Shown: piece by piece, positions 53,651 through 63,511 of the stretch
Layout of the letters: the number at the start of each line of letters is the position of its first letter
Numbering within the stretch: the stretch's first letter is position 1
Source: Planctomycetota bacterium
GTDB lineage: Bacteria; Planctomycetota; Planctomycetia; Pirellulales; Pirellulaceae
Direction: 5' to 3'
Length of the DNA stretch: 64,000 bases
NCBI GenBank assembly: GCA_046086325.1
Contig: JBJSXJ010000233.1
Location: forward strand, 2,177 to 66,176
Notes under the pieces: generated by a model
Seen by the model: the letters and a program-made list of their open reading frames with translations, nothing else
Databases searched by the model: none
Told to the model about the DNA's origin: nothing
Position numbers and translations under genes: made by a program

Positions 53651-54418
53651 ATGCCGGACAACTTCCCAAATCACCCCGTGCAGGCTTCTATGATCGATCC
53701 ACCTCTGACCTTGGATAAAGATCTTCCGGTGGATCCACCATCATCTCCCCTGGGACTCCTGCTGAGCGGCGGCCTCGATAGCGCCATTCTACTAGCTGTC
53801 CTCCTGGAAGAGGGGCGAACTGTGTTTCCCATTTTCATTCGCGGCGGATTGCTATGGGAGAATGAGGAGCGGCGGGCAGTCGAGCAGTTTTGGGAGTCGC
53901 AGCGTGAGCGGCATGGCGAACGGTTGCGGCCCGTGGTCGAATTGCAGCAGCCAGTACGCGACCTCTACGGGGACCACTGGAGCACCACCGGCCAAGGTAT
54001 TCCCGGAACCGAATCGCCCGACGAAGCCGTTTTTCTACCGGGTCGCAATGCCCTGCTCCTCGTCAAAGCCATCCTCTGGTGCCAACTGCATCAAGTCCCC
54101 GAACTGGCACTCGCCCCACTCGCCTCCAATCCCTTCGGAGACGCCAGTGACGCCTTTTTCGCCGACTTCGAACGGGCCATGACCCAAGCGATGATGAAGC
54201 CGATACGCATTTCGCGTCCGTTTGCACAGTTGAAAAAGCCAGCAGTCATGAAGCTGGGAGCTCATTTACCGCTCGAGCTCTCCTTTTCGTGCATCGCGCC
54301 CCGCGCGGGAAACCACTGCGGAGCGTGTAATAAGTGCGAGGAGCGGCGAGTGGCTTTCCGCGCTGCAGGACTCGAAGATCGAACGGTCTACGCGGAGCGA
54401 CGTGGGGTCACGGGGTGA
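53651..54418 (+). CDS. queC: 7-cyano-7-deazaguanine synthase
   Basis: PP-loop LLLSGGLDSA and C-terminal Zn-Cys cluster SCIAP...CGACNKCEERRVAF. Confidence 0.8.
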   Translation: MPDNFPNHPVQASMIDPPLTLDKDLPVDPPSSPLGLLLSGGLDSAILLAVLLEEGRTVFPIFIRGGLLWENEERRAVEQFWESQRERHGERLRPVVELQQPVRDLYGDHWSTTGQGIPGTESPDEAVFLPGRNALLLVKAILWCQLHQVPELALAPLASNPFGDASDAFFADFERAMTQAMMKPIRISRPFAQLKKPAVMKLGAHLPLELSFSCIAPRAGNHCGACNKCEERRVAFRAAGLEDRTVYAERRGVTG

Positions 54419-54474
54419 GAATTTTGCGGCAGATACAACAACCTAAACCGGGCAATTTACCCGGACTATGAGGA

Positions 54475-54882
54475 TTGTCCATGTTTCGGATCGAACGACA
54501 ATTTGATTTCTGCTACGGTCACCGCCTGCTGAACTACGACGGCAAGTGCCGCTTTCTGCACGGGCATAATGGCCGCGCTGTAATTACCCTCGAATCACCC
54601 GATTTGGATCATCGCGGCATGCTGATTGACTTCTCGGACGTCAAGCGCATTGTCGGCAAGTGGCTCGATGATACCCTCGATCATCGCATGATTCTGCATC
54701 GAGACGATCCAGCTGCGGAGTACCTGCAGAAGATGGGGGAGCCGTTATGTCTGGTGGATTACAATCCGACTGCGGAAAACATCGCCAAGCTGATATTCGA
54801 CTTCACTCACCAAGCTGGGTTTCCTATCATCGCGGCCCAACTTTGGGAAACTCCCAATTGTTCCGCGACCTATCGACCTTAA
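54475..54882 (+). CDS. queD: 6-carboxy-5,6,7,8-tetrahydropterin synthase
   Basis: FDFCYGHRL...GKCRFLHGHN...DH (PTPS-family Zn/His motifs). 135 aa. Adjacent to queC. Confidence 0.85.
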   Translation: MSMFRIERQFDFCYGHRLLNYDGKCRFLHGHNGRAVITLESPDLDHRGMLIDFSDVKRIVGKWLDDTLDHRMILHRDDPAAEYLQKMGEPLCLVDYNPTAENIAKLIFDFTHQAGFPIIAAQLWETPNCSATYRP

Positions 54883-55207: not shown

Positions 55208-55687
55208 ATGCTCACGGTGTCTCACGCCGATCATCACGCGTCTGAATCCCAACCGTCTTCACCCGCTGGCTCGTCCACCGAGACTCGCTGCCCGTCGCTG
55301 CTGTCGATCATCAGCGGTTTGGGGTGGCCCGTGTTTCTGGGATTGGGAGCGACCACTCTGTTCTTTGTCCTGATTCATCGCGGCCCACTGAATCATCCGC
55401 TGATGCATCGCTATTTTGCGTCGCATCCGGTGACCTACTGCGAAACCGCGCTGTTCTTCATCGGCATGGCTGCGCTGATCTTGAAGCTGACCGAGGTGGC
55501 GGGCCAGTACTGGGCGTTTGGCGGAGTGTCCTTGCGGCCGGTAAAAACCGGTGGCGATGCGCTCAGCGACTGCCCGCAACTGCTCGCCGATCTGAACGAA
55601 CTACCTACGGGCGTACGACGCTCACACCTCGCTCGACGACTCGGCGATGCACTCGAAATGGTGCGCCGAACTGGCTCGGCTGAATAG
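55208..55687 (+). CDS. membrane protein; apparent N-terminal part (TM1-TM2 plus loop) of a MotA/ExbB-like protein, ending at an in-frame TAG
   Basis: Hydrophobic segments LLSIISGLGWPVFLGLGATTLFFVLI and YCETALFFIGMAALILKL. The TAG at 55685-55687 is in the same frame as the next ORF. Confidence 0.55.
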   Translation: MLTVSHADHHASESQPSSPAGSSTETRCPSLLSIISGLGWPVFLGLGATTLFFVLIHRGPLNHPLMHRYFASHPVTYCETALFFIGMAALILKLTEVAGQYWAFGGVSLRPVKTGGDALSDCPQLLADLNELPTGVRRSHLARRLGDALEMVRRTGSAE

Positions 55688-56500
55688 TTGGCCGACGAGC
55701 TGAAATATCTGGCGGATGTCGAAGCGGCCGCTCAGCAGGAAAGCTATTCGCTCGTGCGCATCGTCATCTGGGCGACGCCGATGCTCGGTTTCCTCGGCAC
55801 CGTGATGGGCATCACCGAAGCTCTGGGCGACTTAAGTAAAAACGCCGAGCTGCTCGCGACATCCATCGACACCGCCATTCAAGGTTTGCTCGGAGGTTTG
55901 TACGTCGCGTTCGACACCACCGCCCTCGCGCTCACCCTCTCCATGCTGCTGATGTTCATTCAGTTTGTGATTGACCGCGTGGAGCAGCAGTTGCTGTCAT
56001 CGGTTGATCGAGCGGCAAATGAACAGTTGATGGGGCGGTTTCCTGGGCTGGTCACCAGCAGTGATCCGCAGGTGGCGATGGTGGAGCGGCTGCTTCAAGT
56101 GCTCAGTCGCGGCGCCGAACAATTATCACAGCGACAAGCCGAAATCTGGCAGGCATCGCTCGTCAAAGCCGAACAGCAGTGGCAGTCGATGTTCCGCGTC
56201 GCCAGCGAACAGATGACGGCGAACTTAACGACGCATCATGATCAATGGGAACGATCCTGCAATGTACTGACCCGAGCGCTGCAGGCATCGAGCGACGTGA
56301 CTGGTTTGGAACAAGCACTGAATTCCAACCTCGCCGCGCTCGCCAGCACGAAGAATTTCGAGGATATGGTGATGAGCTTGACCGCTGCCATCCACCTCCT
56401 CACCACTCGACTGTCGAATACTCCCGAAACCATTGCGTTGACTGACCGCTCACGATTAACGGCCGACGAACTTCGAGTGCTTCGAGGCAAGGCTGCATGA
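55688..56500 (+). CDS. MotA/TolQ/ExbB proton-channel domain protein with a helical C-terminal tail of about 165 aa
   Basis: IVIWATPMLGFLGTVMGITEALG...AIQGLLGGLYVAFDTTALALTLSMLLMFIQFVI matches the MotA_ExbB channel pattern (a.lLGLLGTV.Gmi.aF...gi..AL.tT..GL...ip). The only start at the ORF boundary is TTG at 55688. Confidence 0.7.
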   Translation: MADELKYLADVEAAAQQESYSLVRIVIWATPMLGFLGTVMGITEALGDLSKNAELLATSIDTAIQGLLGGLYVAFDTTALALTLSMLLMFIQFVIDRVEQQLLSSVDRAANEQLMGRFPGLVTSSDPQVAMVERLLQVLSRGAEQLSQRQAEIWQASLVKAEQQWQSMFRVASEQMTANLTTHHDQWERSCNVLTRALQASSDVTGLEQALNSNLAALASTKNFEDMVMSLTAAIHLLTTRLSNTPETIALTDRSRLTADELRVLRGKAA

Positions 56501-58572
56501 GACGTGCCGTATTCCGCCGGACCTCCCAAGGACTGGCGTTATTTCCGTTTCTCGCTGTGCTCATCTGCACCATGGGTTCACTCATCGTGCTCTTGGTGCT
56601 GGTGCTGCAGCAAGCACGCGTGCAGGGCGGTTCCGCTGTGGCGGAAGCGGTCGAAGAGGCGCAGCGCACCGCTCGTGAACAGCGAGTGGCGTTACGGCAG
56701 CAGCAACGCGAGCAACTGGTAGCTGAGCAGCTAGAGCAGCGCAAGCGGCGGGAACTGCACGAAGAGCTGGAGTGGCAGCGCGAACAGTTTGCAGAACAAC
56801 ATGCCTCGCAAGCCGAACAGCTGCGGCGTCAACGGTTGGAATTGAGTCACCTGGAGGATCACATTCGTCGACTGGAAGATCAGCATCGACGCTTGATGAT
56901 CGAGCATGACAAGTTGACCAGCAGCGAGCCCGAGGAAGCCGCGGATCAAGCACAAAAAAAAGAGGCCGATGCGCAAGCGGCCGAATTAGCCGAGCTCCAG
57001 CAGAAGATCGCGGAAGCCAAGAAGTTACTGGAAGAGACGCGGGCTCGTAACGCGAAGCGACCGCCTTCGTTCGCCATCGTTCCCTACACCGGCCAGAACG
57101 GCACTCGTCGCCGACCGATCTACATTGAGTGTGGTGAAGAAGGAATCGTGCTGCATCCCGAGGGCGTGGTGTTTATGCGGCGCGATTTCGAAGGTCCGCT
57201 GGGGCCAGGAAATCCGCTCGATGCGGCCTTGCGCACGGTCCGCGAGTATTGGGCGAAAGTAAACGATCCCCAGCAAACGGGCGAGCCGTATCCGCTCTTG
57301 ATCGTGCGGCCGAGTGGGGCGATTGCGTATGCGATGGCGCGGGCGGCGATGAAGTCGTGGGAAGAAGAGTTTGGATATGAGTTGGTAGACGCGGAGACTC
57401 GCCTGGAGTTTCCCCCGGCGGATCCAGAACTCGAACAGTTATTAAATCGGACGATCCGGGATGCGCGGCAGCGTCAGTCGGCGCTGGCGGCCGCGATGCC
57501 GAGTCGGTTCCAGGGCGAGCAGCCGATGGCGGACGGCCCAGGATTCAGCAGCGGCCCAGGCAGTGCGAATGCTGGCGGTGCGAATGCTGGCAGTGCAAGT
57601 GCCAGCGGTGGTAGCGGAGCGGGGCTGGCAGGTGGTGGTAATGGTGGCAGCCGCGGCAGCCAGCAACTGGTGCGTGGCACCAGTTCGCTTGGGGGAAGCG
57701 GTTCAATAGCAGGCAACGCTGGCGGCTCAGGGCAAACAGGCAGTGCTAGCGGATCTGGGTTAGCGGGTGGTGCTGGCAGCTCAGGGCAAACAGGCAGTGC
57801 TGGCGGATCGGGCCTATCAGGTGGCGCAGTCGGAGCCAACGGCGGCGGTGGTGCCGCAGGTCGCGGGACCTCCGCAGGTGCTCCCGGTGGAAGTGGAAAC
57901 GGAACTGGTGCCGGTGGCGGCGCACCCGGATTTGCCGCTACCTTACCCGGCGTCTCTCCCCCGCCAGGCTCCTCTGACTCCGCTGACGCTCGCCCTCCGG
58001 CCGGTGGCTCCTTCTACGGCGGTGCCGCCTCCCAATACAACTCCGCCTCTTCCACCAGTGGCAACACCAATACCAGTGCCAGCGGTTCTTCAACTGGCAG
58101 TGCCGGTGCCTCTGGTTCCCCGAATTCATCCGCCAATGGCTCCTCGCCCGGCAGTTTTTCCGTGTCACCCGGTGCCGCGGTCGCCGCCCAGCGTGGTGCC
58201 AATTGGGCACTACCCAAACAAGCGAGCTACTCCACCGGAATCACTCGACCCATTCGCATCCGCTGCTTACCGGATCGACTAGTCATCATGCCCGAACGCG
58301 GCGATGACTTCCGTCCGCGGACCGTGATGTGGAACCCGAGTAATCCCCAGAGCTCAACCGAAGAATTCGTCGCGGCGATCTGGAAGCATACCGAACGCTG
58401 GGGGATCGCCGTCGCTGGTGGTTATTGGAAGCCCGTGCTGAGCGTCGAGGTATTGCCCGGCGCGGCTGCCCGTTATCAGGAACTCACTCGCATGCTCAGC
58501 GAGAGCGGTTTGGAATTTCAAGAAAAACAACCGAGTAACGCTCGTGGCCCGTCGCGCAACACAACACGCTGA
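56497..58572 (+). CDS. membrane-anchored coiled-coil protein with ExbD/TolR-like features and a Gly/Ser-rich region of about 215 aa
   Basis: ATGA overlap with the MotA-like ORF. N-terminal TM LALFPFLAVLICTMGSLIVLLVLV. E/R/Q-rich heptad-like region (about aa 40-190). Two segments match the ExbD-periplasmic-type pattern (LLIVRPSGAIAYAMARAAMKSWEEEFGYELV and VLSVEVLPGAAARYQELTRMLSESGLEF). Confidence 0.55.
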   Translation: MRRAVFRRTSQGLALFPFLAVLICTMGSLIVLLVLVLQQARVQGGSAVAEAVEEAQRTAREQRVALRQQQREQLVAEQLEQRKRRELHEELEWQREQFAEQHASQAEQLRRQRLELSHLEDHIRRLEDQHRRLMIEHDKLTSSEPEEAADQAQKKEADAQAAELAELQQKIAEAKKLLEETRARNAKRPPSFAIVPYTGQNGTRRRPIYIECGEEGIVLHPEGVVFMRRDFEGPLGPGNPLDAALRTVREYWAKVNDPQQTGEPYPLLIVRPSGAIAYAMARAAMKSWEEEFGYELVDAETRLEFPPADPELEQLLNRTIRDARQRQSALAAAMPSRFQGEQPMADGPGFSSGPGSANAGGANAGSASASGGSGAGLAGGGNGGSRGSQQLVRGTSSLGGSGSIAGNAGGSGQTGSASGSGLAGGAGSSGQTGSAGGSGLSGGAVGANGGGGAAGRGTSAGAPGGSGNGTGAGGGAPGFAATLPGVSPPPGSSDSADARPPAGGSFYGGAASQYNSASSTSGNTNTSASGSSTGSAGASGSPNSSANGSSPGSFSVSPGAAVAAQRGANWALPKQASYSTGITRPIRIRCLPDRLVIMPERGDDFRPRTVMWNPSNPQSSTEEFVAAIWKHTERWGIAVAGGYWKPVLSVEVLPGAAARYQELTRMLSESGLEFQEKQPSNARGPSRNTTR

Positions 58573-59680
58573 AGCACCCGGACAGGATTCCTTCCTGGAC
58601 GTCGTCGCCAACCTGGTCGGGATCATCATCATCCTGATCATCGTCGTGGGCGTCGCCGCCAAAAAAGCGGTCGTCATGCATGGAGCCGCCGCGGCACTCG
58701 CCGCCTCCCACTCCGAACTCGACTCCACCAACGATCCTGCCGACGACACGGATGCCGTCGCCACCGACAACTCGGACAGCAGTGCCTCCAGCCCATCAGA
58801 CTCCGCTGCCACCACTCCTGAGCCGCTCATCACCGACGCGGATATCCGCGAAGCCAAACGGTCCATGAATGCTGTCGAGGCGTCGATCTTTGAAACCGCC
58901 GGCAAGCTGCAGCGCGACCAGCTCGAAGTGAACTACCGGCGACTCGAACGTGATCGCGTGCAAGCACTCGTCACACTCGCCGAACGCGCCGTCGAAGAGC
59001 AACGCGACAAGCTGGCCGAAGAACGTCGCTCGGAATTCGATGAATCTCGAGCACTCGAAGAAGCGCGACGCGAACTGGCTGACCTGCAGCGCGCCCAATT
59101 AGCACTCGAACGAGCTCGCCCGACCAAAGGGATCTTGGAGCATCTGCCCACACCGATGGCCAAAACAGTCTTTGGCAAAGAAGTGCATCTGCGACTGGCC
59201 GGCGGCAGGCTCGCCTTCATCCCGTGGGACGACTTGGTCGAACGGCTGAAAGCCGATGTGCCGCGCAAGGTTCATCGCTTGCAGGAAACACCCTCCTTCA
59301 CCGAGACACTCGGCCCCGTCGATGGTTTCTCCATTCGTTACACCATGAAACGGACGGAACAGCGAGTCGGTCCCGGATCGACGGGACCCGTACAGCAGCG
59401 TGCTGAGCTGGATCGTTTCCTGATGCTGCCGATGGCGGATGATGTGGGCGAGTCGGTGGAGCAGGCGCTGCGGGCGAATTCCGATTTTCTGGCGCGCTTC
59501 GAGCGACTGGATCCGGCGCGCACAACGGTCACCGTGTGGGTCTACCCAGACAGTTTCGGTTACTTCCGCACCTTCAAAAAACTGCTCTTTGAAAAGGGCT
59601 TTCTCACGGCCGCTCGACCCTTGCCAGACGGTCACCCCGTGGGTGGTTCACCGGACGGTTCCCGTTCTACCGCCGAATAG
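58544..59680 (+). CDS. membrane-anchored coiled-coil protein with ExbD/TolR-like TM (Asp-containing) and C-terminal domain
   Basis: GTG start overlaps the upstream ORF by 29 nt. DSFLDVVANLVGIIIILIIVVG resembles the ExbD/TolR TM helix with its conserved Asp. There is a coiled-coil stretch (about aa 105-190). The C-terminal VTVWVYPDSFGYFRTFKKLLFEKGF is ExbD-like. Confidence 0.55.
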   Translation: MARRATQHAEAPGQDSFLDVVANLVGIIIILIIVVGVAAKKAVVMHGAAAALAASHSELDSTNDPADDTDAVATDNSDSSASSPSDSAATTPEPLITDADIREAKRSMNAVEASIFETAGKLQRDQLEVNYRRLERDRVQALVTLAERAVEEQRDKLAEERRSEFDESRALEEARRELADLQRAQLALERARPTKGILEHLPTPMAKTVFGKEVHLRLAGGRLAFIPWDDLVERLKADVPRKVHRLQETPSFTETLGPVDGFSIRYTMKRTEQRVGPGSTGPVQQRAELDRFLMLPMADDVGESVEQALRANSDFLARFERLDPARTTVTVWVYPDSFGYFRTFKKLLFEKGFLTAARPLPDGHPVGGSPDGSRSTAE

Positions 59681-59731: not shown

Positions 59732-61372
59732 ATGAAAATTGTCATTGTAGGTGCTGTCGCGGGAGGTGCCTCCGCTGCCACTCGCGCGCGACGACTAGCC
59801 GAATCGGCAGACATTGTGCTCTTTGAACGCGGCACCGTCCCGTCGTTCGCCAATTGCGGCATGCCTTATTACGTGGGCGGTGAAATCACAGACCGAGCGA
59901 AACTGCTCGTCACCCCTCCCGAACGTTTGCGTCGTCGCTATCACCTGGACTTGCGCTTACAGACCGAAGTCGTGGCTATCGATCGAGCACGACAGGTTGT
60001 GGTCGCGCGCGATCTGACGACGGGTCGGGAGTATGAGGAGTCGTATGACAAACTGATTTTGTCGCCCGGTGCCGCGCCGCTGCGCCCGCCACTGCCCGGT
60101 AGCGATCATCCGCAGATTTACACCTTGCGAGAACTCCGCGATTGCGATCGCATCAAAGCTGCGATTGATCGCGGTGCCACCGATGTACTGATTATCGGTG
60201 CCGGCTTTATTGGCTTGGAAATGGCTGAGAACTGCGTGCGCCGCAATCTGAAAACGACGATCGTCGAACGCAATCAGCAGATTCTGCCACCTTGGGACAC
60301 CGAGATGACGACCACCGCAGCCGCTCATCTGCGTCAGCACCAAATCGACCTGCGTTTGGGCGATCAAGTCGTCAGCTATGCCGATGAAGCGGGACGAGTG
60401 CGTGTCAGCTATCAGTCGGGCGCGACGCAGGTGGTCGATTTTGTGATCTTGAGTGTCGGCGTTAAGCCCGAGAATTCACTGGCAGTCGCAGCGGGTCTGG
60501 AAATTGGCACTCGCGGCGGCATTCGCGTCAATGAATATCTGCAGACCAGCGATCCTCATATCTATGCGGTGGGAGATGCCATTGAAGTGCGCGACTTCGT
60601 GCTCGGCGAATCCACGCAAATTCCGCTCGCCGGACCCGCGAATCGCCAAGGGCGACTAGCGGCCGATCACCTTTCTAATCACAACCCACCTCCGTATCGT
60701 GGCACTCAGGGGACCGCGATCTTGCGTCTCTTTGAGATGACTGTGGCGATGACGGGTGCGAGTGAGAAATCGCTGCGCCGAGCGGGACGGGAGTACCGCA
60801 AGATTTACATTCATCCCGCGCAGCATGCCGGTTACTATCCGGGTGCCGAGTCGATGACTATCAAGCTGCTCTTCGCACCCACCGACGGACAAATCCTCGG
60901 TGCACAAATTGCTGGTGGTGAGGGAGTGGATAAACGGATCGACGTGCTGGCGGTTGCCATCCAAGCGCGACTCACCGTGTTTGATCTGGAACATTTAGAA
61001 CTGGCTTATTCGCCGCAGTTTGGATCGGCGAAGGATCCGATCAACATGGCGGGCTTCGTGGCAGCTGGACTACTGCGCGGTGATCATCCGCAGATTGCCG
61101 TGGACGAGCTACCGACGCTCGCGGCAGGAACGTCGCTCGTGGACGTGCGCATGCCGAGTGAATTCCAGGCCGGCTCGATACCCGGAGCTATCAACATTCC
61201 CGTAGACGATCTCCGCGACCGGCTCCACGAACTACCCGTCGACCGCCCGCTCGTCGTCTATTGCCAAGTTGGCATGCGAGGTTATTTGTCAACGCGTATA
61301 CTGATGCAGCACGGCTACCAAGTCCGCAACCTAAGCGGCGGCTATCGCTCCTACCAGTTGGCCACGGGATAA
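59732..61372 (+). CDS. CoA-disulfide reductase / NADH-oxidase family flavoprotein fused to a rhodanese domain
   Basis: MKIVIVGAVAGGASAA (FAD), SFANCGMPYY (redox Cys), a second dinucleotide site IIGAGFIGLEMAE, and the C-terminal rhodanese loop VVYCQVGMRG. Confidence 0.8.
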   Translation: MKIVIVGAVAGGASAATRARRLAESADIVLFERGTVPSFANCGMPYYVGGEITDRAKLLVTPPERLRRRYHLDLRLQTEVVAIDRARQVVVARDLTTGREYEESYDKLILSPGAAPLRPPLPGSDHPQIYTLRELRDCDRIKAAIDRGATDVLIIGAGFIGLEMAENCVRRNLKTTIVERNQQILPPWDTEMTTTAAAHLRQHQIDLRLGDQVVSYADEAGRVRVSYQSGATQVVDFVILSVGVKPENSLAVAAGLEIGTRGGIRVNEYLQTSDPHIYAVGDAIEVRDFVLGESTQIPLAGPANRQGRLAADHLSNHNPPPYRGTQGTAILRLFEMTVAMTGASEKSLRRAGREYRKIYIHPAQHAGYYPGAESMTIKLLFAPTDGQILGAQIAGGEGVDKRIDVLAVAIQARLTVFDLEHLELAYSPQFGSAKDPINMAGFVAAGLLRGDHPQIAVDELPTLAAGTSLVDVRMPSEFQAGSIPGAINIPVDDLRDRLHELPVDRPLVVYCQVGMRGYLSTRILMQHGYQVRNLSGGYRSYQLATG

Positions 61373-61386
61373 TGGGGAGGCTTCCC

Positions 61387-62790
61387 ATGCGTATTGACCA
61401 TTTAGAACTCCGGAATTTTAGAAAGTTCATCGAGGCTGAAGTCGAATTTCCCAGGTCGTTTTTAGGACCACCAGATGCCGGATCCTTTCACGTACTGATC
61501 GGTGAAAACGGAATAGGAAAAACCACGATCCTCGACGCGCTCGCCGTAACGCTAGGCGTCTGGTTAGAGTCGGTGCCCGATTCATTGCTTGCCAATAGCC
61601 ACCGCCGACTCAGCAAAGACGATAAGCGGCTGATTACCACCGCGAGTGGTGACCGAAAGCAGTATCAGCGCGTGCCCGAGTCGATGTCGGTGCGAGTCAC
61701 AGGAAATATCCTCGACCTGGAAAACGTAACCTGGGGGCAAGAACTCGCGGTGGGCAGGACGAAGGTGAGCAACGACTGCTCAAAAACGGTATTAGCATCG
61801 ATTCGTTCAGCTTATGATCGAGCCAGCCACTGCGAACCAGTGTTACTTCCGGTCATCTGTTACTACGGAGCAGGCCGAGCGTGGCTTTCGCATAACGAAC
61901 GCAAAAAGGCGAAGGTGAAGTCAAATGGCCCGGCAAACCGATGGGAGGCATTCTACGATTGTTTAAACGAACGCATAAGGGTTTCTGATCTTGCGCGATG
62001 GTTTCAACGCGAACATATCGAAATGGGTCATCGAGGAAAACCGCGTCCCGGTTTTGATGTTGTACGAAGAGCTGTGTTAGGGTGCGTCCCCGGCGCGGAT
62101 GGAATTCGATATGACGGTGATGCAGGTGAGATCGCGTTGTCGATTGACGGCAACGACCAGCCTTTTAGTAATCTGAGCGCCGGACAGCGAGTTATGTTAG
62201 CAATGGTTGCCGACCTGGCCATCAAGATGGTTACGCAAAACAACTTTCTTGTACCAGCCGATGCGCTCAGGCCCGAAGATGCACCATTACCCCGCGTTTT
62301 AGCTGAAACACCAGGCGTTGTGCTGATCGACGAACTAGATGTTCACTTGCATCCCAAGTGGCAGCGTGGGATGGTCGAAGCCTTACGGGAAACCTTTCCG
62401 AAGACTCAGTTCATCGCGACAACTCATTCGCCATTTATCGTGCAGTCCTTACGCGAAGACGAGCTGATTAACCTCCAGGGACAGACTATTCCGCAACTTG
62501 GTAATCTCGGTGTAGAACAAATCGTACGTGGACTGATGGGAGTGGATCGTCCAGAAGTGGCGTTGCGGTACGACGAAATGGTGACGGCTGCCAAAGATTA
62601 CCTGACCACCCTCGACGAGGCAGCGAACGCTCCCGCAGAGATGCGCAGTCATTATGAAGCAAAGCTTGCCGATCGTGTCGCAAGGTATGCTGATAATCCC
62701 GCTTATCAAGCATTTTTAGAGCTCAAACATGCCGCTAGGTTGGGTACCAATGCGTCGAGTTCGGCCACCGCTCAGCAAAGAGGGGCTTGA
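61387..62790 (+). CDS. AAA/ABC-type ATPase (AAA_15/AAA_21-like), PtuA-like
   Basis: MRIDHLELRNFRKF, Walker A GENGIGKTT, Walker B VVLIDELDVHLHP, and ATTHSPFIV. GGGGAGG lies 7 nt upstream of the ATG. Confidence 0.6.
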   Translation: MRIDHLELRNFRKFIEAEVEFPRSFLGPPDAGSFHVLIGENGIGKTTILDALAVTLGVWLESVPDSLLANSHRRLSKDDKRLITTASGDRKQYQRVPESMSVRVTGNILDLENVTWGQELAVGRTKVSNDCSKTVLASIRSAYDRASHCEPVLLPVICYYGAGRAWLSHNERKKAKVKSNGPANRWEAFYDCLNERIRVSDLARWFQREHIEMGHRGKPRPGFDVVRRAVLGCVPGADGIRYDGDAGEIALSIDGNDQPFSNLSAGQRVMLAMVADLAIKMVTQNNFLVPADALRPEDAPLPRVLAETPGVVLIDELDVHLHPKWQRGMVEALRETFPKTQFIATTHSPFIVQSLREDELINLQGQTIPQLGNLGVEQIVRGLMGVDRPEVALRYDEMVTAAKDYLTTLDEAANAPAEMRSHYEAKLADRVARYADNPAYQAFLELKHAARLGTNASSSATAQQRGA

Positions 62791-63511
62791 GGTGCGACCG
62801 ATCGATCGTGGCGACAGCCCTCAGGCAATTGAATACGAAAACTACCGAGACGCATTTCCCATGCTGGTCAAGCGAATTGGTCCCTTTTGTTCGTATTGTG
62901 AACGTCGTTTTCCGTCAGCGCTCGCAGTGGAGCACATACAGCCCAAGAAGGCTCATGTAGCGCTGAAAGGTCACTGGTATAACTTTTTGTTGGGTTGCAC
63001 GAACTGCAATTCAACCAAAAAAGATAAGTCAGTAATTCTGGACTAACTGCTTCTTCCCGATCGCGATAATACGGCGGCCGCATATCGGTACTCAGACGAT
63101 GGTCGAATAACGGTCAATCCCAAATTAACTGCAGCCCAAAAGGTAATGGCAGAAGAAACCCTCGCATTGATAGGCCTCGATAAGCAAGAGGCGAACGACA
63201 CTAACTCGAATAGCCAGTTGGTCGCGATCGACCGACGAACTCAAAGAAAAGAGGTTTGGTGTATCGCGCAGGTTAGTAAAGCTGACTTGAACCTTAATCC
63301 TACTGATGGATTTCGCCGGCAGATTGCGCGTACAGCGTATGGGTGTGGCTTCTTCAGTATCTGGATGACGGTATTTGAAGACGATGTAATGGTCAGAACA
63401 TTATTAATCGAGGCTTTCACGGGTACAGCACAAGATTGTTTTGACCCAAATACGACAAAGGTAATCAGTCCTCGTCCAAAAAACGGATTACCTAGTGGTG
63501 GCAAAACATAG
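62750..63511 (+). pseudogene. HNH endonuclease (TIGR02646-like, PtuB-like) interrupted by one in-frame TAA at 63044-63046
   Basis: HNH core CSYCERRF...LAVEHIQPK...WYNFLLGCTNCNSTK. ORFs 62729..63046 and 63146..63511 are in the same frame, and the 99 nt between them (LLLPDRDNTAAAYRYSDDGRITVNPKLTAAQKV) contain no stop. Confidence 0.6.

Follow-up and report, generated by a model that had tools for sequence, protein, structure and literature searches.

The stretch of DNA analyzed here, called the window, comprises 64,000 nt of a Pirellulaceae genome (Planctomycetota; GenBank assembly GCA_046086325.1, contig JBJSXJ010000233.1), and all coordinates below refer to it. The subject of this study is a compact module in the window, with all its open reading frames (ORFs) on the + strand, which encodes a MotA/ExbB-like membrane protein, here called the A subunit, and two large proteins, those of ORF3 and ORF4, each of which begins with a single transmembrane (TM) segment (Table 1). 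A previous interpretation made from the letters alone (hereafter the sequence-only reading) had described four tightly coupled ORFs with an in-frame junction at 55687/55688. The coordinates of the ORFs and of this junction were reproduced, but the number of genes was not, because the junction is an in-frame TAG inside one gene. When translated through this stop, ORF1 and ORF2 yield one protein of 430 residues, which single ORFs of 430–500 aa in relatives match over its full length; overall, the single A ORF of relatives measures 422–500 aa. The module consists of three genes, and ORF1 and ORF2 are parts of a single gene. The two remaining junctions, an ATGA overlap of the A gene and ORF3 at 56497–56500 and a 29-nt overlap of ORF3 and ORF4 at 58544–58572, were confirmed in the sequence. 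The start of ORF4 is a GTG at 58544, which is backed by the N-termini of homologues and by an identical 378-aa protein at NCBI (P0001, from a Planctomycetota metagenome-assembled genome, MAG). Scans of the module region with Rfam and for promoters and terminators gave nothing informative.

The module belongs to a large family. At least 1,313 homologues of the ORF4 protein and at least 1,799 of the ORF3 protein were found, all annotated as hypothetical only, and at E ≤ 1e-30 the former fell into 878 clusters (50% identity). In a scan of one genome per GTDB species, 477 genomes encoded relatives of ORF4; the best 80 of these 477 were all Planctomycetota, and where more precise names were given, they were Pirellulales, Pirellulaceae, Anatilimnocola, Blastopirellula, and Ca. 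Anammoximicrobium. One culturable bacterium with the module is Anatilimnocola aggregata ETAA8 (ETAA8_25460). Wherever a locus extended far enough upstream, hidden Markov models of the three proteins identified A, ORF3-like (510–740 aa), and ORF4-like (∼340 aa) in this order and on the same strand; this count covers 66 loci, a few of which are duplicate fetches of the same contig. In relatives, these three genes usually abut or overlap. Because every informative related locus keeps all three side by side, the features of the module lie far beyond chance. No published description of the trio was found in the literature. Ion-driven 5:2 motors are the engines behind flagella, gliding, Ton/Tol transport, and Zorya defense; judging from the alignments and structural models described below, the trio is likely to be a large, lineage-specific, uncharacterized branch of this superfamily with a natural single-Asp asymmetry.

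Table 1. Features of the module and its surroundings in the window, and two homologous loci on other contigs.
Feature	Position	Strand	Details
queC- and queD-like (PTPS) genes	53651–54882	+	just upstream of the module
A subunit gene, MotA/ExbB-like, TAG-interrupted	55208–56500	+	PF01618 match; intact single ORF in relatives
ORF1	55208–55687	+	159 aa; N-terminal piece of the A subunit gene
In-frame TAG (amber)	55685–55687	+	context GAA TAG TTG; divides the A gene into ORFs of 159 aa and 270 aa
ORF2	55688–56500	+	270 aa; C-terminal piece of the A subunit gene
A channel core (TM3-loop-TM4)	55751–55954	+	LGFLGTV and AF(D)TT motifs; T198 at 55799–55801, T238 at 55919–55921
ORF3	56497–58572	+	691 aa; Asp-less B-type partner
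ORF3 TM helix, LFPFLAVLICTMGSLIVLLVLVL	56539–56607	+	Ala20 (56554–56556) at the Asp position of B subunits
ORF3 alpha/beta domain 1 (residues ∼190–335)	57064–57501	+	predicted beta-beta-beta-alpha-beta-alpha-beta(-alpha); pLDDT means of 10-residue blocks mostly 87–97
ORF3 disordered linker (residues 342–555)	57520–58161	+	pLDDT < 50; 32% Gly, 22% Ser, 16% Ala
ORF3 alpha/beta domain 2 (residues ∼558–680)	58168–58536	+	predicted; block pLDDT means 86–97 over 561–680
ORF4	58544–59680	+	378 aa; Asp-bearing B-type partner
ORF4 TM helix containing SFLDVVANLVG	58583–58657	+	Asp19 codon at 58598–58600
ORF4 helical hairpin (98–156 and 159–190), predicted periplasmic	58835–59113	+	block pLDDT means ∼89–96
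ORF4 linear motif, HLPTPMAKTVFG	59141–59176	+	between stalk and domain; H200, L201, P202, T203, P204, A206, T208, V209 invariant
ORF4 alpha/beta domain (212–368) and C-terminal peptide RPLPxGxPxGGSPxGSRS	59177–59677	+	predicted; pLDDT means of 10-residue blocks 85–97
Septu locus: PtuA and PtuB in two pieces	61261–63511		PADLOC, PtuA E = 2e-104; ∼1.6 kb downstream of the module
Asp-retaining ORF3 homologues, LFTFLDVLICTMG	L090:7001–8944; L091:604–2628		same module, with Asp-bearing ORF4 alongside

The A subunit and its interrupted gene

The A subunit was assigned to the MotA/ExbB family by its match to PF01618 (MotA_ExbB), which ORF2 reached with E = 7e-9 (35.9 bits; cut-off, 22.9 bits) and three intact relatives with E = 1.7e-10 to 8e-10 (38.9–41.2 bits). 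The protein has four hydrophobic segments (residues 38–56, 74–92, 182–200, and 231–249), and the last two are near-invariant in an alignment of 63 sequences, reading WATPMLGFLGTVxGIT and GLYVAFDTTALAL. LGFLGTV, AF(D)TT, T198, T237, and T238 were invariant in 36 sequences and conserved to ≥ 90% in the 63-sequence alignment. The MotA/TolQ/ExbB channel motif seen in the sequence-only reading was thus confirmed by the Pfam match above the cut-off and by the invariant motifs. In an hhalign comparison with Escherichia coli ExbB (E = 1.1e-3, probability 20%), LGFLGTV lay on GLFGTVWG and AFDTTAL on ALLATAI, so that T198 and T238 were paired with the Thr of the GTV motif and the Thr of the ATA motif in the final two TM helices of ExbB. 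We take these Thr residues to be the pore residues T148 and T181.

The tail of about 165 aa after the channel, which the sequence-only reading had noted as foreign to ExbB and TolQ and had described as helical, is indeed present. It measures 175 aa here and 171–238 aa in 62 relatives, it is rich in A/L/Q/E and poor in Pro (1.3%), and it is presumably helical. A conserved motif, LExALNxNLxAL...FE...AAIHLL, occurs near its end. Where the A gene meets ORF3 at the ATGA (56486–56500), the A subunit closes with G-[KR]-A-A, which is conserved. This conservation may stem from the ribosome-binding site and start of ORF3, which overlap it (AAGGCTGCATGA), or from a role as a C-terminal recognition tag.

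Similarity to A subunits of known structure was slight. The best PDB match of the single A sequence was 8vvn_C (E = 2e-4), a chain of 696 aa that was deposited under the name of a MotA/TolQ/ExbB domain protein and that we take to be ZorA, and a family profile of A retained only a weak match to MotA (E = 0.03), with ZorA dropping out. The MotA equivalogs of NCBIfam scored 17 bits against cut-offs > 300, and the ZorA, ExbB, and TolQ models also remained far below their cut-offs. Because the similarity to solved A subunits and curated models is this weak, we consider the A subunit to be a deep, separate branch of the MotA/ExbB superfamily and not a ZorA.

The amber codon concerns the window copy of this gene. 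In the contig of a close relative (L008, 86% identical; ORF4 protein 89% identical), a CAG (Gln) codon stands at the position of the TAG and the A ORF is intact (430 aa), and the A gene is a single ORF in all fetched loci except the window and two frameshift-riddled MAGs (L055 and L064). The A gene in the window carries either a C-to-T nonsense change or a consensus error, and this copy is either inactivated or mis-called. A second in-frame stop, CAA to TAA at 63044–63046, splits the PtuB gene of the downstream Septu locus into 62729–63046 and 63146–63511. Both stops lie within 8 kb, and both replace a Gln codon of close relatives through a C-to-T change; 14 other genes compared in the region were intact. 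Strain polymorphism, deamination-type errors, or artefacts of the MAG consensus could each account for the paired stops.

One explanation is that the module of this genome is a decaying pseudogene locus or that the stop is an assembly or consensus error, and that the window copy is consequently uninformative on function; we give this explanation about an even chance. It is favored by the TAG in place of CAG and by the nonsense change in PtuB, 7 kb downstream. Furthermore, a sister MAG contig (L007, 97.5% identical; ORF4 protein 99% identical) has an intact PtuB and a different split gene, that of the oxidoreductase, and neither the 159-aa nor the 270-aa A fragment is on record among the called proteins of other assemblies. 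Against decay, both halves of the A gene are still 93% identical in protein to the intact L008 relative, with no additional stops or frameshifts, and ORF3 and ORF4 are intact. Because the halves are so well conserved beside two intact genes, the interruption is very recent, polymorphic, or artefactual, and it leaves the conclusion at the level of the family unaffected.

The two single-pass partner proteins

Each partner has a single N-terminal TM segment, preceded by four Arg in ORF3 and by two Arg in ORF4. Within the ORF4 homologues, D19, N23, V25, and G36 were invariant in 118 of 118 sequences. At the equivalent position 20 of ORF3 (within LFPFLAVLICTMG), Ala was found in 115 of 120 homologues and Asp in the other five (FLDVLICTMG). 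The sequence-only reading, which had described two single-TM partners with an Asp in the second and an Ala in the first, is upheld by these counts. The Asp-keeping ORF3 homologues occupy the same three-gene module beside an Asp-bearing ORF4, and their lineage looks like the ancestral two-Asp state. Residues 15–33 of ORF3 are mostly ≥ 95% conserved, and the same level is reached by nearly every residue in the TM helices of both partners; such conservation would be unusual for a passive membrane anchor. With hhalign, the ORF3 TM helix aligned with that of ORF4 (E = 1.9e-4), A20 lying on D19; domain 1 of ORF3 aligned with domain 2 (E = 6e-6, probability 85%), and domain 2 with the ORF4 domain (E = 2.4e-4). 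Because the TM helices align and the three alpha/beta domains are mutually related, if weakly to moderately, ORF3 and ORF4 are interpreted as paralogues. The invariance of D19, together with the Asp kept in 5 of 120 ORF3 homologues, makes both helices look like paralogous “B-type” pore helices.

AlphaFold2 (AF2) models were built with family alignments and had a mean predicted local distance difference test score (pLDDT) of 71 for ORF3 (model m6a426ca96a1e) and 81 for ORF4 (model m118b7ac00c42). In ORF3, a continuous helix (residues 19–142) is followed by a return helix (150–187), forming a predicted periplasmic helical hairpin; in ORF4, a disordered, lineage-specific acidic/Ser insert (residues 58–97) precedes the hairpin listed in Table 1. 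These long helices agree with the long coiled coil that had been proposed for each partner. The disordered linker between the two ORF3 domains is 214 aa long here and varies from 82 to 290 aa across the family. In ORF4, pLDDT is low for residues 196–206, although the motif HLPTPMAKTVFG is invariant, and this motif is a candidate partner-binding or strand-addition site. Invariant columns also occur toward the C-terminus of ORF4 (R358, P359, P370, G372, and S375), where the terminal peptide (59615–59677) was modeled with low confidence; this peptide and HLPTPMAKTVFG are probably partner-binding elements. The two proteins appear to share one plan, i.e., a pore-type helix, a coiled-coil stalk, a conserved peptide, and an alpha/beta domain.

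Two side observations were made among the homologues. First, five ORF3 homologues (P0130, P0166, P0200, P0123, and P0139; residues ∼18–170) recurrently gave sub-threshold matches to PF06785 (UPF0242), the best at 31.3 vs. 33.5 bits. We take PF06785 to be a chlamydial family with a TM helix and a coiled coil, and the match may be coiled-coil noise or may point to a relative of the Asp-less partner across the Planctomycetes–Verrucomicrobia–Chlamydiae (PVC) bacteria. Second, a 1,019-aa protein from the search of representatives (P0458) is a predicted ORF3-ORF4 fusion with two TM helices. Because its membrane topology would be inconsistent, it is probably due to a lost stop codon or an assembly artefact, and it was rejected as a Rosetta-stone fusion and treated as an ORF3-ORF4 read-through.

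The sequence-only reading had regarded the partners as ExbD-like in two respects, of which the TM helix with its Asp was upheld, while the ExbD type of the periplasmic domain could not be confirmed. SFLDVV of ORF4 aligned with PFIDVM of ExbD, and the ORF3 TM helix with PLLDV of TolR, Ala lying on the Asp (E = 0.004). The segments that had been seen as ExbD-patterned, two in ORF3 and one in ORF4, correspond to the alpha/beta domains of the AF2 models. However, PF02472 (ExbD) matched none of the window proteins, five ORF3 homologues, or domain and TM consensus sequences (E ≤ 10), and it was not among the 25 most frequent of the 166 families listed for 118 ORF4 homologues. Jackhmmer searches of all fetched loci, started from ExbD and TolR, failed to pick up the partners, and hhalign comparisons with E. 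coli ExbD alone and with 113 enterobacterial ExbD/TolR sequences were non-significant. A more diverse profile (78 metagenomic ExbD and 7 enterobacterial ExbD/TolR sequences) gave non-significant values of E = 0.08–0.5 for all three domains; in this range, the best local matches were co-linear with beta1-beta2 or beta3-alpha2-beta4 of ExbD, with WALP...RPIRIxC on V(N/D)LP...PVYLSV and with VRPxGxxxY or VYPDSFxxF on FRADKTVDY. A Foldseek search of both models against the PDB returned nothing below E = 0.02 (best for the ORF4 model, E = 0.09), and TolR (5by4) appeared at rank 36 (E = 0.5, TM-score 0.39), below uS11 and ASKHA-type domains. These top matches (ribosomal uS11 and ASKHA-type kinases) were set aside, as they share only a generic beta-beta-beta-alpha-beta-alpha-beta topology. 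The alpha/beta domains may be very remote relatives of ExbD or a separate family.

Likewise, in scans that also took in 118 homologues and consensus sequences of the domains, ORF3 and ORF4 matched no family in Pfam, NCBIfam, or PADLOC apart from coiled-coil noise, and a search of the PDB with the ORF4 sequence profile found coiled-coil proteins only. PF03544, PF06519, PF13103, and OmpA were unmatched in Pfam scans of the window proteins and homologues, in line with the absence of OmpA/peptidoglycan-binding, TonB C-terminal, and TolA domain III motifs that had been reported before. Based on these profile searches, an ordinary ExbD accompanied by TonB/TolA does not describe the partners.

A highly diverged Ton/Tol system, in which the A subunit would be the analogue of ExbB/TolQ, ORF4 would form a homodimeric ExbD/TolR-like axle, and ORF3 would be a force transducer like TolA or TonB bound outside the pentamer, is the main alternative, though a rather unlikely one in our estimate. 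The architecture of ORF3 does recall TolA/TonB, with its TM anchor, long helix, disordered linker of 82–290 aa rich in G/S/A/P, and C-terminal domain; moreover, ORF3 lacks the Asp in most lineages, the non-significant domain matches are co-linear with ExbD elements, and TolR does appear in the Foldseek results at rank 36. The Tol-Pal system is also reported to be largely reduced in Planctomycetes (PMC8871954). However, neither the ORF3 nor the ORF4 TM helix contains the His of the SHLS/His motif of TonB/TolA, and no match to TonB_C or TolA was obtained. The ORF3 helix is of the B type, with Asp still present in 5 of 120 homologues, its domains are paralogous to that of ORF4 and not TonB/TolA-like, the A subunit differs from ExbB/TolQ in its four hydrophobic segments and long tail, and PF02472 is unmatched.

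Genomic context and the question of defense

Among 83 loci, no neighboring gene was universal, and most of the neighbor “clusters” were shadow ORFs. The queD gene lies upstream of the module in 23 of these 83 loci, and nothing points to a functional link between queC/queD and the module. Elsewhere, the module is set among housekeeping genes, and it is single-copy. In the window, a CoA-disulfide-reductase-like gene separates the module from the Septu locus, and the other flank of the Septu slot is a polysaccharide pyruvyl transferase gene. In L008, the same slot holds GmrSD on the opposite strand (L008:12918–14600); in other genomes the slot is taken by different genes, with nothing comparable, and it looks like a small defense hotspot. 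The module is thus regarded as a vertically inherited core feature and not as cargo of a defense island.

These observations bear on the defense role that the sequence-only reading had called conceivable, given a tail reminiscent of ZorA and a Septu-like locus downstream. In such a scheme, the module would be a Zorya-like or other anti-phage system whose A subunit is a ZorA-like motor with a signaling tail, functionally linked to Septu. The long cytoplasmic tail of the A subunit, the Septu PtuA/PtuB genes 1.6 kb downstream, and weak ZorA matches would fit: the only PADLOC matches of the module were ZorA models on the A subunit (13–30 bits), including values of E = 6e-7 to 6e-8, to which the PDB match 8vvn_C can be added. 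The tail is real, but the likeness is weak and generic, with ZorA scores of 20–30 bits in PADLOC and, in NCBIfam, 13.7 bits vs. a cut-off of 100 for antiphage_ZorA_2 and 9.7 vs. 700 for ZorA2, and it is lost with the family profile. Beside the module there is no ZorB (OmpA-type), ZorC, ZorD, or ZorE, the neighbors being queC, queD, an oxidoreductase gene, and the like, and the partners match no PADLOC model. The proposed link to Septu did not hold, as Septu is an unrelated neighbor with an intervening gene and its slot is filled by GmrSD in a close relative. In addition, the module is single-copy and syntenic with queC/queD and housekeeping genes in a family spanning 477 species. With a variable Septu slot, no Zorya partners, and housekeeping surroundings elsewhere, a defense role is unsupported, and we regard it as extremely improbable.

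A putative envelope motor and its relation to known systems

The reading we prefer is that the locus probably encodes an ion-driven, and most plausibly proton-driven, membrane motor of the MotA/ExbB class and the 5:2 type, in an operon specific to the Pirellulales lineage. The PF01618 match, the conserved D19, and the AF2 models support what the sequence-only reading had proposed in outline, a divergent, uncharacterized MotA/ExbB-type module with an Asp-bearing single-pass partner and coiled-coil stalks. The alignments demonstrate the family membership of the A subunit, the conserved Asp and Thr residues, the paralogy of the partners, and the conservation of the operon, to which the models add predicted folds; from these we infer the 5:2 stoichiometry, the rotation, and the periplasmic orientation.

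In such a machine, the A subunit would form a pentameric ring with a four-segment membrane core and a cytoplasmic helical tail of 170–240 aa, and the N-terminal helices of ORF3 and ORF4 would sit in the pore of the ring. Asp19 of ORF4 would be protonatable and would face the Thr residues of the A subunit, creating the ion pathway, and ORF3 would have lost its pore Asp to Ala in most lineages. The hairpins, the alpha/beta domains, the ORF3 linker, and the invariant peptides could together span the enlarged planctomycetal periplasm. These periplasmic parts would attach to a partner in the wall or outer membrane that is encoded outside the operon, or would exert a pull on it, an output that would resemble Ton/Tol or GldLM more than the flagellar stator. 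For the axle, we tentatively favor an ORF3:ORF4 heterodimer with a single Asp, and a function in the envelope is put forward with slightly greater reserve. Heterologous TolR-like or “transpore-helix” pairs that work with pentamers of the TolQ kind have been put forward for PVC bacteria (PMC12204202), and the reported reduction of Tol-Pal in Planctomycetes (PMC8871954) also counts in favor of the motor reading. A much more speculative extension, which we consider unlikely, is a Pirellulales-specific asymmetric 5:1:1 motor, whose drive shaft, a heterodimer of Asp-bearing and Asp-less subunits, powers a process of these FtsZ-less budding bacteria (for example, constricting the outer membrane or the wall at the bud neck, or energized uptake of macromolecules) and replaces the reduced Tol-Pal/Ton systems.

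Several points weigh against the motor proposed here. The A gene is interrupted in the window, and the similarity of the A subunit to solved 5:2 A subunits is weak, whether by profile (MotA) or by single sequence (ZorA). The partners match no ExbD, MotB, or OmpA model, and the similarity of their helices to the ExbD/TolR pattern P-F/L-I/L-D-V extends over 6–18 columns only and is non-significant (E = 0.004–0.15). No outer-membrane or wall partner is co-encoded among the conserved neighbors, and we know of no characterized precedent for a single-Asp axle. A non-rotary system, in which a MotA/ExbB-derived channel or static scaffold would be combined with partners acting as spacers, tethers, or stress sensors and the Asp would serve gating or assembly, draws on the loss of Asp from one partner, on the lack of a recognizable wall- or outer-membrane-binding output domain, and on the divergence of the A subunit from all solved motors. 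However, the module strictly keeps the Asp and Thr residues that the ion pathway requires in MotAB, ExbBD, and TolQR, conservation is extreme in the TM helices of both partners, and the genes are translationally coupled, so we judge a non-rotary system to be improbable.

With each new family of 5:2 motors, another means has come to light by which membrane energy drives work in other parts of the cell. If the motor reading is correct, the module would be a concrete candidate for how Pirellulales energize their outer envelope. The family is large (878 clusters, 477 species) and, as sampled, confined to one order with an unusual envelope biology and an unexplained mode of division. The natural change from Asp to Ala in one of two paralogous pore helices, with relatives that retain the Asp, offers a ready test of a one-site 5:2 motor.

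Among known systems, ExbB-ExbD and TolQ-TolR share several features with the module. Its A subunit is a PF01618 member in which the Thr motifs GTV and TT/AT are preserved; as in ExbD and TolR, the only TM helix of a partner is N-terminal and bears an Asp close to its cytoplasmic end, in the context (S/P)-F/L-L/I-D-V; the genes are adjacent and translationally coupled, and the output is probably periplasmic. In contrast to ExbB/TolQ, the A subunit has an additional N-terminal hydrophobic segment and a C-terminal tail of 170–240 aa. Compared with ExbD/TolR (∼140 aa), the partners are far longer (340 aa and 510–740 aa), contain coiled-coil hairpins and an alpha/beta family of their own, do not match PF02472, and include one Asp-less member; moreover, no TonB, TolA, TolB, or Pal is encoded alongside. 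Unlike MotAB and PomAB of the flagellar stator, the partners show no MotB/OmpA-like peptidoglycan-binding match.

ZorA-ZorB is similar in having a MotA-like A subunit with a long, presumably helical cytoplasmic tail. The tail of ZorA is much longer than that of the A subunit, the chain 8vvn_C measuring 696 aa in all, and the module differs from Zorya in lacking an OmpA-type ZorB, ZorC, and ZorD and in belonging to the core gene set of one order and not to defense islands. GldL-GldM and PorL-PorM are analogous, with a cytoplasmic extension on the A-type subunit and a single-pass partner whose multi-domain periplasmic part could span the periplasm, but they have no sequence or Pfam relation to the module. 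GldL carries an acidic residue and GldM an Arg, whereas in the module it is the partner that has the Asp, in the manner of MotB, ExbD, and TolR. A match in concept is given by the TolQ-like motors of PVC bacteria and Proteobacteria with heterologous TolR-like pairs or “transpore-helix” vWA transducers, in which an Asp-bearing output helix is proposed to sit in a pentamer (PMC12204202). Pairs of ExbD/TolR-like genes in one operon are also known elsewhere from that work (PMC12204202); in the module, by comparison, there are no TPR or vWA genes nearby, the output consists of coiled coils and a new alpha/beta domain instead of vWA, and one member of the pair has replaced its Asp.

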